From the NCBI GenBank assembly GCA_964016885.1, contig OZ024745.1, positions 85,498,001 through 85,562,000 on the forward strand: a DNA stretch of 64,000 bases, read 5' to 3'. Origin of the DNA: Eledone cirrhosa (Eukaryota). The position numbers were made by a program, and so were the translations under genes. Shown here piece by piece: positions 1,505 to 64,000 of the stretch. Each line of letters begins with the position of its first letter. Position 1 is the stretch's first letter. Under the pieces are notes generated by a model. That model had not been told where the DNA came from and ran no database searches. It saw only the letters and a list, made by a program, of their open reading frames with translations.

Positions 1505-1514
1505 GGAACGAGTA

Positions 1515-1617
1515 GGACCCCGACGGCTGAGCTCAAGCCGTTTCGACGGCTAATTCTGGACTAAATGAAAATGTTTATCCTGGTATATGAATAGCCGAGC
1601 TTTTCAGGGCTAATTCC
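1515..1617 (-). ncRNA. Hammerhead-like motif, family A (core CUGAAAA in this copy)
   Basis: Reverse-complement copy of 3423-3527. Confidence 0.5.
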
Positions 1618-3422
1618 ATATATGGTAAAAGTGATTGTCACAAGGATTGGTAAAAGGTTTGTTGTTCTGACACATAATTCTATCATGATTTGTGGAGGGA
1701 AGGGGTAGCTGAACCTGCCAGTAGTGCCAACTATAGCTGGGCAGGAGGGCAAGGAAGTATTATAGGGAGGGAGGGTAGGGGAGGATGTCGAAACAATAAG
1801 TAAAACAATATGGGGTAAATATATAGAAAAATACCGAGAATGTTAAAAAAACAATTAAATATTTAAAAAAAAACAATTTCTGGGTACTATAACCTGAGGA
1901 CAGCTATCAAGTCTCTCACTGGTACTGCTAGACTAAAGAAATGTTTACTAGGTGGGACGGAAATATAATGAGACCCTTTTAAGAGGTATTAGTAATCAAC
2001 CGAGTATAACTTACGGTGACGGGTCAACAAGTGGGGGGCCAAAATACTAAAGAAACTACCACAAAATAATAATTCAGAGTCCCGAGACTAATACGAAATA
2101 AAGGTTTCTACCCCAGGCACAAGGCCAGCAACCATCCAGTGCAAAATAATAAACTAATAGGATATAATAATTCAGAATCCCGAAAAAGAATACAAGAAAG
2201 ATGAACTGGTAACTGCATGTAAACACAGATTGCGTAGGACTTACCTCGCCCTCAAACCCCATAATGACTCGGGTGGGGGTGGGGGACAAGGGCTATAACA
2301 CCCCACTTGCCGACTTTGTAATGGGTAACCCCCGCTTGCAAAGGTAGACGTAAGATCGTCTTTTATATCTTTTTATCGCTTCCTCTATATTTCCTTCTTC
2401 CCCTTCCCTCCCTAGTCCTTCCACCCCAGTCCTCTTTCTTTGTCGTCGTCCTTTTCACTTTCTCGCCCACCCGAGGCAGCCCCTCTGTCCTTTGTAGCCT
2501 CAGTACCCCCACCCCCTTCCCCTATTCTATGATAGAATTGGCCGACTCCGCTTTTTATAGCAGATGTGATAGACACCGGATACTTGCCTTCTTATCCGAT
2601 GGCTGCCCCTTTTCCGTGCTTTCTACATTTCTTAGTGGTATCTTGCTTTAATTTTTCGTATATCAGTATTTATTTGGGGGGGGGGGGGGCTTCTGATTTA
2701 ATTTTCCGTATCAAATTTTTCATATACTTCGTACGAGGATTTATGTAGTTTGCACTAGAATTTTTATTTCGTAGCGGCACCCTTAGAGATAGTATTAGTA
2801 TTCTTTTTCGGGATTCTGAATTATTATATCGTATTAGTTTCTTTTTTTGCACTGGGTGGTTGCTGGCCTTGTGTCTGTGGTAGAAACCTTTATTTCGTAT
2901 TAATCTCGGGACTCTGAATTATTATTTCGTGGTAGTTTCTTTAGTATTTTGGCCCCCCACTTGTTGACCCACCACCGTAAGATATATTGGGTTGATTACT
3001 AATACCTCTTAAAAGGGTCTCATTATAATTCCGTCCCACCTAGTAAACCTTTCTTTAGTCTAGCAGTACCAGTGAGAGACTTGATAGCTGTCCTCAGGTT
3101 ATAGTAACCAGAAATTGTTTTGTTTTTTTATATTTAATTGTTTTTTTAACATTCTCGGTATTTTTCTATATATTTACCCCATATTGTTTTACTTATTGTT
3201 TCGACTACCTCCCACTCCGCCTCCCTAGTATACTTCCTTGACCTCCTGCCCAGCTGTAGTTGGCACTATCAACGCACGACTGGGTTTCCCCCACCCCCTC
3301 TCCCTCTTTCTTCTACTGGCAGGTTCAGCTACCCCTTCCCTCCACAAATTGCCATGATAGAATTATGTGTCTCAACAACAAACTTTTGACCAATCCTTGT
3401 GACAATCACTTTTACCATATAT

Positions 3423-3527
3423 GGAATTACCCTCTGAGAAGCTCGGCTATTCATATACCAGATAAACATTTTCATTTTAGTCCAGAATTAACCGTCGAAA
3501 CGGCTTGAGCTCAGCCGTCGGGGTCCT
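3423..3527 (+). ncRNA. Hammerhead-like motif, family A (atypical core CUGAGAA)
   Basis: Stem I ACCCT/GGGGT, CTGA at 3434, long interrupted stem II, GAAA at 3497, stem III CGGCT/AGCCG, GUC triplet at 3517-3519. Confidence 0.6.
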
Positions 3528-3639
3528 ACTCGTTCCTATTACCCACTCTACTACCCTAAGTATTGCGTACTTTGGTGCGTTATGGTCCACCTGGTTCTTT
3601 ACCACATTTCTTTCGTTATATATATCTATATATAATATA

Positions 3640-4280
3640 TAGAAATTACATGAATCAAAGTTCTGTTCAAATCATTTATTCTCTTACAATTGTTTCTTCC
3701 AAACCGAGGTTTGGAGTCTTCGGAGCAATTTTTCAATGATTGTTTACATACATGACCTCCTTTTCAACACATTAGACATACAGAAACATATGTATATATT
3801 GATGCACAGTGGGTTGACATCCATTATAATATTTAAGCTTGGCAGTTTACATTCAAAGATTAAAGACATATTAAAAGAAAATTACAACAAAATTAAAGTT
3901 ATAATACAACATTGGCAGTTTACGAAGAATATGCAGGAGGATAGTTAGAAGTAGTTAGTTACACGTGGGGCATACAGTGTGTCCTATTTATATAAGATTA
4001 TAGTGCGGTAAGGTGTTATATGGGATATAAGCACTTTAAGCGGGCAATCAAGAGTATTATGGGCGTTGTATAGTATTTTATGTGTATGATATAGAAGCTT
4101 GTGTGCAGAGATTCATGTAACTTCTATATAACTGCTCTGTAGAACAACTGATGTTATTACATTGAGCTGTTTATCTTATTGGTAATAAGGTAGTAATAAA
4201 TTACTGTTTAGGGTTTAAAATATATATAATTATAAAAGGTTTTAGTATATACATAACCATAAATAGTATCCTTAATACTA
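3640..4280 (-). mobile_element. PLE family D relative, non-coding foldback remnant
   Basis: 3640-3760 is homologous to 61550-61670. 4110-4260 is the inverted tail, homologous to 61390-61560. Short inverted repeat TAGAAATTACATGAATC / GATTCATGTAACTTCTA. Confidence 0.75.
3679..3731 (-). ncRNA. Minimal hammerhead, family D (core CCGAAGA)
   Basis: Reverse strand reads ATTGCT CCGAAGA CTCCAAACC TC GGTTTGGAA GAAA CAATTG TA AGAGAAT. Confidence 0.65.
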
Positions 4281-4589
4281 TATATAATATATATATATAT
4301 AATATATATATATATAATATATATATATATATATATATATATATATATATATATATATATATATATAATATATATATATAATATATATATATATAATATA
4401 TATATATAAATATATATATAAATATAATATATATATATAATATATATATTATATATATATATATAATATATATATATATATATATATATATATATTATAT
4501 ATATATATATTATATATATATATATATTATATATATATATATTATATATATATATTATATATATATATATATATATCATATATACGATA

Positions 4590-61576: not shown

Positions 61577-61630
61577 ATTGTGCTTACAGCTGTTTCCTCC
61601 AAACCGAGGTTTGGATTCTTCGGAGCAATT
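61577..61630 (-). ncRNA. Minimal hammerhead, family D (core CCGAAGA)
   Basis: Mirror of 63941-63993. Confidence 0.68.
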
Positions 61631-61800
61631 TATTAATGCATGGACAGTTATATGACCTCCTTTTCAGCCGAGAGACATACCAATACATATTCAAACATTG
61701 ATACATATTCAAACATTGTGGGTCAACATTCATTACAGAATTTAGAGTGGCAGTACACACTTCGAGATTACATTTATATTAATAGGTACAATCAAAAATC

Positions 61801-62499
61801 TCATACTCTACGACGCCTAACTTAGCATACCACATAGCTAGCAGCAATAATAGTAAAATTAGTTCTTACTTCCAACAAACAAAATCACAACGGGATGCAA
61901 ACCCTCTAAATACCACTGTAGCAAGCAACAATAGCAACGGCAGTAACAATAGAAATAACACTAGTATAAGTAATAACACCAGGGTTGTCAACCCGAACAC
62001 CCAAAATCCTATATCCACCACACAGACTTCCGCATTGCATTATAACCAGCAGACTAACGCACAGAATAATTGTAACTGTAGAGCTAATAGAACCTGCCCT
62101 TTAGATAAAAAATACCTAACCAAGGATGTCATATACTCATGCACAGTCACGACTAATAACTCTTCAGAAACCTATGTAGGCTCCACTTCTAACTGCTTCA
62201 AAATCAGATATAACTCGCACATCCACTCGTTCAAAAAGCACAGCCTAGCCAACTCCACCTCACTTTCTAGCTACATACACTATCTAAAATCTAAAAATAA
62301 ACCATACACACTCAAATGGGAAGTGATAGGCAGCGCGACCTCGTACAAACCACCTAATAAATTCTGTAACCTCTGTATACTAGAGACACACAATATTATC
62401 TTCTCCAACCGTAACCTACTTAACAAAAAATCTGAGGTGTTTGCAACTTGCCAGCACCGCCTCAGACATTCCTTCCAAAACTTTAAGCCCTATATATAG
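61801..62499 (+). pseudogene. PLE linker plus GIY-YIG endonuclease fragment
   Basis: Open frame SYSTTPNL...CNCRANRTCPLDKKY..VIY..YVGSTS..CNLCILE..CQHR. Confidence 0.9.
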
Positions 62500-63940
62500 C
62501 AATGTCGGACTGGAACCTAACACCACATCTAGCATCAAACACCAGAGACACACCCTATACTACATACCCAACACTAGCTGATCCATTATAACACAAACAA
62601 CGACATCCCTCTGGAACCCTTCGCAGGGAAAATACCCATTTATACCTCTACGGCAGGTGTGACAACATCCACCCACTTGGACGGCACTACACCGCTCTAA
62701 GGGTAATTTGAGCATGAATTGATCGGTTGGATGGTGTTGGGCAGAGGAAACACCTTCCTTAGACAGATGTAAAATGATTTAATCGAGTAGCGCTGTTGAC
62801 CAGTAGGACCGGGCTGCTGAGCGCAGTGAGTGAATGCAATGCAACTGCCGTGCGGGTTGTACGTATATGGATGATCTGACGGTCAGAGAGGGGTCGCGAG
62901 GACTGCGGATTGACCTTTGGCCTGCCTGGGGACGATTATCTTTCGACATCCAATGTAGCAAGCGATGACCCAGATCTTACCAGAGATCATTGGGTCCTGA
63001 AGCAATCCTGCAATCACCGCGCCTGGTCATATGAGCAGACTACAACCACAGAGATCATTAATTTAGAATCCTCGCTCATCATCTATAATTTCCATTTGTA
63101 ACACCTTAAGATGGGTTAATCCACCTTAATAATAATATGATCACCTTCAGCATAATTTAGTTAAACTACTCTATAGTTAGTACACTTTATGCTTTAAAAG
63201 TCTCTCTTGGAAGGTGCACCTCACCATAGATTTTAGGGTCTATATTGGGACACATTTTAATGGCTAGATATAGAAACCCCAGAGTTACCTCCCCGCATGC
63301 ATTAACTCCCCTTAGCCACACACACACTTCCGGTATTCAATGGCGTTTCTCGAAACGTAACAACCTCCTGTATCGAACTAAAGAACACCAGACTACGATC
63401 TCTAACTGGATTGTCGTGGATTATGTGAAAGGCATATAATCGAAATATACACTCCCTTGACCATGAAAATGCCGAAGTACATGAATTACTTGACATCCCT
63501 GCGCTGTGCATCTCCAATACTTATAACACTTTTAATGCTTGCACTATCTTTAATGCTTATAATATTTCTCCACACACAGACTATATCAATCATATAAAGA
63601 CTTTGCCACCAGATCTACCAACCTAACACTCTTATTTACCTACCTAAGTGCCTCTACCACACATATCTCTCTGCCACACTATATAAACAAGACGCACATG
63701 CGTGCCACACATATAACATTTGCACTATATAACCACTTATCTTCATGTTGTACTTTAACCTATATCTTTGATTTTTGATTGTACCTATTAATATAAATGT
63801 AATCTCGAAGTGTGTACTGCCACTCTAAATTCTGTAATGAATGTTGACCCACAATGTTTGAATATGTATCAATGTTTGAATATGTATTGGTATGTCTCTC
63901 GGCTGAAAAGGAGGTCATATAACTGTCCATGCATTAATAA

Positions 63941-63993
63941 ATTGCTCCGAAGAATCCAAACCTCGGTTTGGAGGAAACAGCTGTAAGCACAAT
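63941..63993 (+). ncRNA. Minimal hammerhead, family D (core CCGAAGA)
   Basis: ATTGCT CCGAAGA ATCCAAACC TC GGTTTGGAG GAAA CAGCTG TA AGCACAAT. Confidence 0.68.
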
Positions 63994-64000
63994 AATGTTT

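Follow-up and report, generated by a model that had tools for sequence, protein, structure and literature searches.

The 64,000-nucleotide stretch of the Eledone cirrhosa genome analyzed here (contig OZ024745.1, positions 85,498,001 to 85,562,000; the window) contains insertions with an inverted and a sense arm, both ending in (TA)n, and raises the question of what sets the two ends of such an insertion. The origin of the tails and inverted ends of Penelope-like retrotransposons (PLEs) is named as an open problem in PMC8557442 and PMC11167929. An initial annotation of the window had proposed that each of five PLE families has two reproducible termini downstream of a predicted hammerhead ribozyme (HHR), a short end (S) and a long end (L), and that fold-back insertions combine one of each.

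Identity of the elements

The elements are assigned by motif to the Hydra clade of PLEs, the proteins having been compared by eye with the File S4 entries. By eye, families A, B, and C have RWR as the N-terminal motif and DKT (in place of DKG); RWR is also present in families D and F, and the homologues have RW[KR] in 112/120 and DK[TS] in 118/120. In families A-D, inspection by eye showed a CxCx5C linker (also in 107/120 homologues) and an EN that has no CCHH and whose E and N are flanked by CxxC and CxH. Family B includes open frames of 713 aa. A TA run terminates 357 of the 412 alignments that pass the HHR cut, consistent with insertion into (TA)n. The C-terminal EN+ PLEs of the Hydra clade in Craig et al. 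2021 (PMC8557442) are alike in RW[KR], DKT, the linker and EN motifs just given, (TA)n insertion, partial tandems, and inverted copies, and they have a pLTR hammerhead, as is predicted for the elements here; however, units there are generally <3 kb, while those here are ~3.3 to 6.5 kb. The HHRs were called from motifs only, and the predicted core is canonical in families C, F, and E (a further family) and variant in A, B, and D. At threshold, an Rfam search returned no hammerhead of these elements and no family matching the hairpin described below. Pieces of the Hydra RT match no family in a Pfam search, and a PDB sequence search gave no match. A homodimer prediction for residues 1-490 of family B, in which the alignment was not used, scored 0.00, a value that speaks neither for nor against a dimer. 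The features of the window are listed in Table 1.

Table 1. Penelope-like insertions and associated features in the window (S, short end; L, long end)
Feature	Position	Strand	Remarks
(TA)n target array, degenerate, example	747..1504		
Family A fold-back	1505..3615		Inverted arm S 1505, sense arm L 3615
Family A predicted hammerhead	3434..3523	+	Variant core, long stem II, palindromic stem III; cut after 3519; below Rfam threshold
Family A tail, S to L, 80 nt	3537..3615	+	Hairpin 1 mutated in this copy
Family D fold-back	3642..4277		S 3642, L 4277; arms barely overlap; hairpin 1 4134-4167 (+)
Family B fold-back	8722..9702		S 8722, L 9702; HHR core 9548; hairpin 1 9620-9664 (+)
Family C insertion	10421..14102		Short inverted L arm (+36 to +137), sense arm to S; hairpin 1 10482-10501 (-)
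Most of ORF, in sense arm of family C 10421..14102	10473-12655		One frameshift
Family F fold-back	14622..21435		S+L; arms 98.8% identical over ~2.97 kb; hairpin 1 21309-21389 (+)
Family F second-subfamily fold-back	21764..23633		S+L; hairpin 1 23507-23585 (+)
Family A full-length	28958..33089	-	S+S exception; 5' pLTR, leader, ORF, 3' pLTR
RT-EN ORF of family A 28958..33089	32337-30184	-	One internal stop
Family B near-full-length	35990..39336	-	S 35990; 5' end joins (TA)n directly; hairpins 39193-39237, 39133-39148
Family A mini fold-back	41698..41770		S arm and internally shortened L arm
Family B mini	42116..42212		S arm (-31 to +24), non-overlapping L arm (+66 to +113), 7-nt overlap at joint
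Family E	44575..46863	-	Canonical HHR 44704-44774, hairpin 44646-44667, L ~44575
Family B micro fold-back	47412..~47459		S arm and short L fragment
Family C fold-back	47544..47994		S 47544, L 47994
Family B copy	48755..51992	-	Read-through 5' junction, L 48755; weak 13-nt inverted S remnant ~51980-51992
Family B hairpin 1	51719..51763	-	6 nt 3' of short-end junction
Family B hairpin 2	51659..51674	-	6 nt 3' of long-end junction; upstream of ATG 51636
Family C fold-back	57110..57596		L 57110, S 57596; hairpin 1 57171-57190 (-)
Family D insertion	61377..64000		Inverted L arm 61377; hairpin 1 61501-61534 (-); S 27 bases past window
EN domain of family D 61377..64000	61786-62499	+	

Two ends per family and their pairing

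The termini listed in the initial annotation were all found within a few bases. In a 1.864-Mb sample of the genome, 349 of the 357 TA-abutting junctions lie at two fixed sites per family (177 S and 172 L), as two sharp peaks and not as the continuous distribution that had been named as the outcome against two termini. Measured from the predicted HHR cut, S lies at +17 in family A, +24 in B, +48 to 50 in C, +42 to 43 in D, and +69 to 70 in F, and the tail from S to L is 80, 89, 88-91, 164-166, and 134 nt, respectively. In family E, 10/10 sampled junctions are at two sites. None of the ends in the 1.864-Mb sample has poly(A). The extension had been equated with the sequence between the pLTR and the ORF in families A and B; the tail does lie in this leader, but makes up only its first part, since L is 93 (A), 44 (B), or 49 (C) nt upstream of the ATG.

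Fold-back insertions combine one end of each type far more often than chance. Among 100 clean head-to-head insertions, 94 pair S with L (p=9e-22), while 20,000 permutations of the pairing gave S+L a mean of 51 and a maximum of 72, and neighbouring separate insertions used as a control gave 47/103. The same pairing holds for 86/91 clean pairs outside the window, 50/53 on other contigs, and 21/24 of at least 700 bp. The exceptions are five SS and one LL; the family A copy previously singled out at 28958/33088 (28958/33089 here) is indeed S+S. Twelve full-length B copies were sought later and two were not found; all ten that were typed obey the rule, with 5' S and 3' L in 5/5 and 5' L and 3' S in 5/5. 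Tabulating junctions and pair types, the test that the annotation itself had suggested, thus returned sharp peaks and a strong S+L excess in place of random pairing. The rule applies to fold-back insertions and not to all ends: 125/357 termini are unpaired (in the window at 4585, 35990, and 58349), and among 20 simple insertions with an unpaired end, that end is L in 15. The pair 51990/48753 of family B was a weak example, because the partner at 51990 is an AT-only remnant of ~13 nt.

As a feature, the two ends correspond to the known PLE tail, and are less new than the annotation implied. Published tails measure 30-40 bp and extend one member of a pair of inverted pLTRs (PMC3846280 and PMC8557442). 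For Poseidon PAc, PMC11167929 reports that the tail spans two internal RT start sites in vitro, that both strands are cut and extended, that RNA 3' of the start is required, and that the start occurs without homology. The elements here resemble these in having two 3' termini downstream of a (here predicted) hammerhead with a tail between them, often on only one of the two ends, an AT-rich target, and, probably, uncleaved RNA as template, and by analogy with PAc the tail ends are probably RT initiation sites here also. In contrast, the tail in families A-F is 80-166 nt and lies in the 5' leader and not in the ORF, UA or UAU matches the target at each S and L junction and would allow the primer to pair with the template, the extension on one of two inverted pLTRs has been quantified, and an RNA element is repeated 3' of each site. 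A strict short+long rule was not found in print; it constrains the mechanism of PLE integration. The two-ended mechanism suggested in the annotation is supported by the junction peaks and by the S+L excess, with the reservation that two termini were partly known.

A predicted hairpin downstream of both ends

In each of the five families, both ends are followed, at a distance of 6-11 nt, by a predicted bulged RNA hairpin, RCUC/GAGY with a 2-nt 3' bulge. It is present at 10/10 end sites and in 226/272 copies, against a background of ~0.006 per 11-nt window, and it predicted the L ends of families D and F before those sequences were retrieved. In the further families G and H, junctions are located just 5' of hairpins in 45/46 and 12/12 cases, counted on trimmed references with families I and K left out. 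Metagenomic relatives have at least one hairpin upstream of the ORF in 44/55 loci and two in 30/55, spaced 55-83 nt apart, with 11/55 lacking it; the same scan found hairpins in 4/163 ORF interiors and 34/1100 shuffles. All six mappable junctions in these relatives are 6-11 nt 5' of a hairpin. A metagenome scan with one 90-aa query gave no match. The hairpin shows covariation: the first upper pair is Watson-Crick in 77/77, compared with a maximum of 57 after shuffling. The predicted folding of an individual hairpin is weak (z -0.2 to -3.2). Among six published Hydra consensus sequences (PMC8557442), three have the motif, a fourth has a variant, and two have no hairpin. Neither the duplicated hairpin nor the pairing rule is described in the available text of that paper, and a duplicated bulged hairpin 3' of both ends was not found in print.

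The hairpin copies likely fix where reverse transcription starts, and the duplicated hairpin is a physical candidate for the "programmed sites" of the initial annotation. That each site has this hairpin, and at an equal offset, suggests that the same reaction takes place at both. The hairpin is thus a small RNA element, with covariation, from which the two ends could be foretold in two families not seen before, as well as junctions in other organisms. The pairing rule offers curators a way of setting element ends, and both the hairpin and the rule can be tested by point mutations. In R2 two-subunit TPRT and at the telomerase template boundary, RNA structures position the enzyme by a short primer-pairing template, and the hairpins here would similarly place the enzyme beside a short template pairing with the DNA primer. 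R2 has unlike 5' and 3' RNA motifs and makes one first-strand cDNA, whereas in the elements here each of two similar hairpins, 55-166 nt apart, would start its own cDNA. The RT of PLEs is sister to that of telomerase, and a start defined by a hairpin therefore bears on the origin of template boundary control.

Models of integration

The best model is twin priming with one hairpin per target strand, to which we give a probability of about 65%. Two RT-endonuclease molecules would bind the two hairpins of one RNA, and the palindromic (TA)n target would be nicked on both strands. Each 3'-OH would pair with the UA/UAU that lies a few bases upstream of one of the hairpins, priming cDNA synthesis; the cDNA from L would either stop near S or displace the S cDNA. 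Finally, a template jump or short microhomology would link the two cDNA ends in head-to-head orientation. If each site is used once per RNA, S+L follows. In L1 twin priming, two target ends prime on one RNA, giving an inversion whose halves meet head to head through short microhomology, but this is occasional, with one primer on poly(A) and the other at variable internal sites. The joints here are also head to head, with an overlap of 0-8 nt in 45/72 resolved insertions; however, both sites are fixed, there is no poly(A), and the arms often overlap (only 18/72 do not). The proposed process would work like twin priming but differs from that of L1.

The 54/72 insertions with overlapping arms require strand displacement or a second RNA under twin priming. 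An unlikely alternative is single priming followed by fold-back, in which the cDNA starts at L and copies itself, and the S end is cut or annealed with the hairpin acting as DNA; self-priming (PMC3846280) and EN-mediated resolution (PMC8557442) have both been put forward. This would explain S+L and the near-identical arms, and agrees with the preponderance of L among simple unpaired insertions, with the L arm reaching further in 18/72, and with joints whose arms end no more than 6 nt apart in 21/72, although S should then be nested in L and is not in 33/72 (18 non-overlapping and 15 in which S reaches further). In addition, the inverted arm is the one with L, and the sense arm the one with S, in five full-length B copies, and the like hairpin and offset at both sites suggest one type of reaction. 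Near-symmetric joints are also expected from fold-back, and later deletion at palindrome tips could have reshaped the arm geometry. Slightly less probable again is a dimeric complex of two RNAs, each primed once, with protein asymmetry assigning hairpin 1 or hairpin 2. Overlapping arms would then need no displacement, and PLE hammerheads with palindromic stem III loops may act as dimers (PMC4209133), but an extra rule is required to bar S+S and L+L, some L arms halt close to S or right at it, which would fit a block on a single RNA, and the arms of one insertion match in subfamily (median identity 97.6% versus 91.2%) despite several coexisting subfamilies. Own-arm identity is strictly best in only 26/40, which limits the case for origin from one RNA molecule.

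That the ends are not programmed at all, and result from TA microhomology with later deletion into the microsatellite or from copying of a few master S+L minis, is highly improbable. UA/UAU does follow every S and L site, but simple TA microhomology, which the annotation had named as an outcome against its reading, was rejected: in family B, 0/76 junctions fall in the longest internal TA runs though 38 arms run through them, and family C uses 2/17 alternating runs. A few joints recur (6/72), but 66/72 are distinct, and amplification of a few master minis was rejected on this basis; the rule is also valid for long and full-length copies, and ends in further families and in other organisms are predicted by the hairpin. 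Nor do the 100-500 bp minis fit MITEs, which have equal terminal inverted repeats and a fixed length: their ends are unequal by the tail length, and the joints differ.

Under twin priming, a full-length copy that ends in L requires a template in which hairpin 2 follows the 3' pLTR, and this template would therefore be circular, pLTR-switched, or tandem. A circle is slightly favoured, at short of even odds, and a switch between pLTRs or a multi-unit tandem are each somewhat less probable, equally so. The arms run across the HHR cut, which fits an uncleaved or re-ligated RNA; a linear RNA starting at the cut was rejected as the usual template, since only 7/240 arm boundaries stop there. The circular option is weakened by the non-canonical HHR cores of families A, B, and D. 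A circular template has been modelled for PLEs and non-LTR retrozymes (PMC4209133, PMC7229834), and retrozymes have a type I hammerhead with palindromic stem III, similar to that predicted here, and, as here, more-than-unit copies that a circle can explain. The elements here, however, either are autonomous or descend from autonomous elements, the predicted core is non-canonical in three of five families, and the circle is hypothetical. A broader and doubtful proposal is that Hydra-clade PLEs have an obligatory two-ended reaction, in which a circular RNA has two hairpins of the same fold, each launching cDNA from one (TA)n strand. If true, RNA structure would program both ends, with neither LTRs nor poly(A) involved, and any RNA furnished with both hairpins would be copied into (TA)n with two defined ends.

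Degenerate (TA)n target arrays make up 19% of the window. Production of these arrays by the element RT was rejected, the polarity of interruptions being unrelated to end type: the first 80 nt beyond the end have 124 AA and 118 TT after S, and 108 of each after L. By extrapolation, the whole genome has roughly 4x10^5 termini.

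Fixed ends and their pairing

The elements are nested insertions within degenerate (TA)n arrays, which occupy 19% of the window and 11% of a genome sample of 1,864,000 bases (the window, an adjoining 600 kb picked for its density, and, from eight further contigs, twelve 100-kb blocks placed at round-number positions). Their ORFs encode a reverse transcriptase (RT) whose C-terminus carries a GIY-YIG endonuclease, and contain, by eye, RWR, DKT, a CxCx5C linker, and endonuclease CxxC and CxH; PMC8557442 gives this set for Penelope-like elements (PLEs) of the Hydra clade, to which the elements belong by motif. 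Among 120 homologues, the RW motif is found in 112, a DKT-type motif in 118, CxCx5C in 107, CxxC in 105, and CxH in 104. A type I hammerhead is predicted in every family, with a canonical core in C and F and a variant core in A, B, and D; some family A copies resemble the U3-A8 variant described in PMC4209133, and an Rfam scan detected no hammerhead of these families at threshold.

Every terminus listed by the initial annotation is present in the window, although the end at 51990 amounts to merely about 13 AT bases. The short terminus (S) lies at +17 (A), +24 (B), +48–50 (C), +42–43 (D), or +69–70 (F) from the predicted cut, and the long terminus (L) follows after 80 (A), 89 (B), 88–91 (C), 164–166 (D), or 134 nt (F). 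With TA-dominated matches and family F matches below 45 bits removed, 412 alignments in the sample cross the cut site, and their junctions form the two anticipated peaks: S accounts for 177, L for 172, and other positions for 8, while 55 have no called TA junction. Public contigs of run X1, which may be the source sample, have two loose-end clusters with a TA consensus that correspond to L (106) and S (141); the X1 clusters at 51730–51731 run on as element sequence. In X6, from a separate study, a single contig terminates at each of S and L. Because L sits 93 (A), 44 (B), and 49 nt (C) before the ATG, the S-to-L stretch (the tail) takes up some, but not all, of the leader; the earlier equation of the extension with the whole interval from 5' terminal repeat (pLTR) to ORF in A and B therefore holds for its location, but not for its extent.

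Short+long pairing of ends is a real feature. The sample has 116 head-to-head pairs, of which 104 lack an inner TA array; the 100 of these typed at both ends comprise 94 SL, 5 SS, and 1 LL, the excess that had been proposed. Of the 12 pairs with inner arrays, 9 are SL, 1 is SS, and 2 have one end untyped. The SL type accounts for 36/40, 19/19, 26/27, 9/9, and 4/5 pairs in the five families, for 86/91 outside the window, and for 50/53 on other contigs. In a control of same-family neighbours lying tail to tail, SL occurs in 47/103, and permutation gives a mean of 51 and a maximum of 72. Unpaired termini number 125. Direct entry into TA at the 5' side accounts for 20 (15 L and 5 S), a small arm partners another 10 (of opposite type in 9), 1 lies on the edge of a block, and the other 94 are unresolved. 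In a later test on family B, 3' ends were fetched for 12 of the 14 ORF-start copies whose inverted arm had been typed: 5' S goes with 3' L in 5/5 and 5' L with 3' S in 5/5 (3' end not found for 2), one L end lying about 600 bp early. At L231:1120-1152, a family A read-through junction at the expected 3' end of B copy L200 is probably a nested insertion.

A duplicated predicted hairpin beside the junctions

A predicted bulged RNA hairpin (RCUC, variable stem, 2-nt bulge of UU, UC, or UA, GAGY) starts 6–11 nt 3' of each junction, as hairpin 1 after S and hairpin 2 after L. It was first recognised from A, B, and C, and afterwards detected after L in the majority of A and in D and F. At S and L respectively it is found in 53/68 and 19/23 (A), 53/65 and 27/29 (B), 45/54 and 1/1 (C), 16/17 and 3/3 (D), and 8/11 and 1/1 (F), against a motif background of 0.56 per kb. 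The B, C, D, and F reference copies have it at S and L only; that of A is mutated. RNAalifold predicts a common fold for 13 sites with compensatory changes at 3/6 pairs, and covariation is 0.43 versus 0.18 shuffled in an alignment selected for the motif. Individual hairpins fold weakly, but in 12/12 the best structure includes the basal stem. No Rfam family was found for it.

Two families, G and H, were found from ORF starts, the H hairpin being a relaxed motif selected by eye. Junctions lie 1–16 nt 5' of the hairpin in 45/46 (G) and 12/12 (H), and clean pairs are 6 SL and 1 untyped in G and 3 SL in H. In the H variant (L116, L011) the outer pair does not form and CAA follows the hairpin; ends still lie 6–15 nt 5' of it in 12/12. 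In family E, 10/10 junctions fall at two sites. Sequence upstream of the ORF reaches 90 nt or more in 55 of 78 metagenomic loci; 44 of these 55 have at least one hairpin and 30 at least two, compared with 4/163 ORF interiors, 34/1100 shuffles, and 8/55 reverse strands. Counted as 50 clusters, 26 have two hairpins, 15 one, and 9 none, and 6/6 mappable TA junctions lie 6–11 nt 5' of a hairpin. A Watson-Crick pair adjoins the 2-nt bulge in all 77 distinct GCUC...GAGCRCU cases (53 C-G, 24 U-A; shuffles mean 44, maximum 57), pairing not having been required in the search and 26 matches without a nearby GCUC having been left out. By eye, among the published Hydra consensi, the motif occurs twice before the ATG in Hydra-1_Ajap, once in the 3' tail in Hydra-2_Ajap and Hydra-2_Amil, and as a variant in Hydra-1_Crog; it was not seen in Hydra-1_Obim or Hydra-1_Amil.

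TA microhomology is present at the junctions, with UA, UAU, or AUAU following each S and L site in read-through copies, but is not sufficient alone. As sole determinant it is contradicted by the 7- and 8-nt TA runs of family B at +43 and +53, used by 0/76 junctions although 38 arms traverse them, and by family C, where 2 of 17 alternating runs are used.

Arm geometry and candidate mechanisms

Among 99 SL insertions analysed, 72 were resolved and 27 unresolved. In the resolved set, the L arm halts at or near S in 18; the S arm extends further upstream in 15, the L arm in 18, and the two end within 6 nt in 21. Joints have a 0–8 nt overlap in 45, and 66 are distinct. Median arm identity is 97.6% within an insertion versus 91.2% to other copies, although the own partner is strictly the best match in just 26/40; pLTRs differ by 1.2% within an element versus 2.4% between. 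Arms traverse the hammerhead site, 7/240 stopping there. Arm 5' boundaries cluster at about -21 to -50 (A), -41 to -50 (B), and more loosely -110 to -140 (C), often symmetrically between the two arms; a structural stall, a transcript start, or a deletion hot spot could each be responsible.

The pairing suggests, with a probability of roughly 65%, twin priming from the two hairpins of one RNA. Two RT-endonuclease molecules would occupy the hairpins of a single RNA, a palindromic target would be nicked on both strands, each target end would base-pair with UA beside one hairpin and then prime cDNA, and the two cDNAs would be joined head to head. For PAc, a Poseidon PLE studied in vitro, PMC11167929 reports that both strands are cut and extended, that two internal starts bound the tail, and that RNA 3' of the start is required while cleavage is not, which supports the separate parts of the mechanism. 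Fold-back of one cDNA would also yield both ends, but is unlikely and would require later deletions in 33/72 cases. Two RNAs, one per end, would need an additional exclusion rule and seem slightly less probable again.

A read-through 5' junction with an L 3' end occurs in 5/10 copies of B, and in 3/3 of D and 1/1 of F, the latter selected for two tails; such copies need hairpin 2 downstream of the 3' pLTR, because hairpin 2 lies beyond L. By eye, no same-strand unit-spaced ORF starts were seen among 150 listed B matches and no triplets among 40 family D matches, which speaks for a circle, or for a switch from one pLTR to the other, rather than for genomic tandems, without deciding the matter. 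A circular template has been proposed for PLEs in PMC4209133.

Earlier work already describes PLE tails, the inversion of pLTRs, and insertion targeted to (TA)n (PMC3846280, PMC8557442, PMC11167929). The pairing rule and hairpin were not found in Rfam or in the open-access literature searched. The finding makes an open question of PLE integration accessible to direct mutational tests.

Other features

Several relatives of the minus-strand PLE in the table occur in the sample, and BLASTP against the Hydra RT gave no significant match. The first 29 bases of the 47-bp piece run into another fold-back family elsewhere; the piece is possibly a micro-insertion spread together with the TA arrays.

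Further features of the window
Feature	Position	Strand	Remark
Two 93-bp tandem copies	274-460		within open frame
Presumed RTE-like LINE 3' region fragment	8071-8665		flanked by TA arrays
47-bp piece	9930-9976, 48555-48601, 56704-56746, 56855-56885, 61013-61055		inside TA arrays
Near-perfect palindrome, 6.8 kb	14622-21435		98.8% over ~2.97 kb, microsatellite-rich; family F units of 6469 bp elsewhere
Short SINE-like repeat end	23842-23909, 52006-52072, 56973-57038		set in TA arrays
Interrupted LINE	24200-27152	-	AP-endonuclease and RT ORFs; family by eye
Different PLE	58558-59930	-	canonical CxxC-bearing GIY-YIG domain; RVT_1 E=1.6e-9
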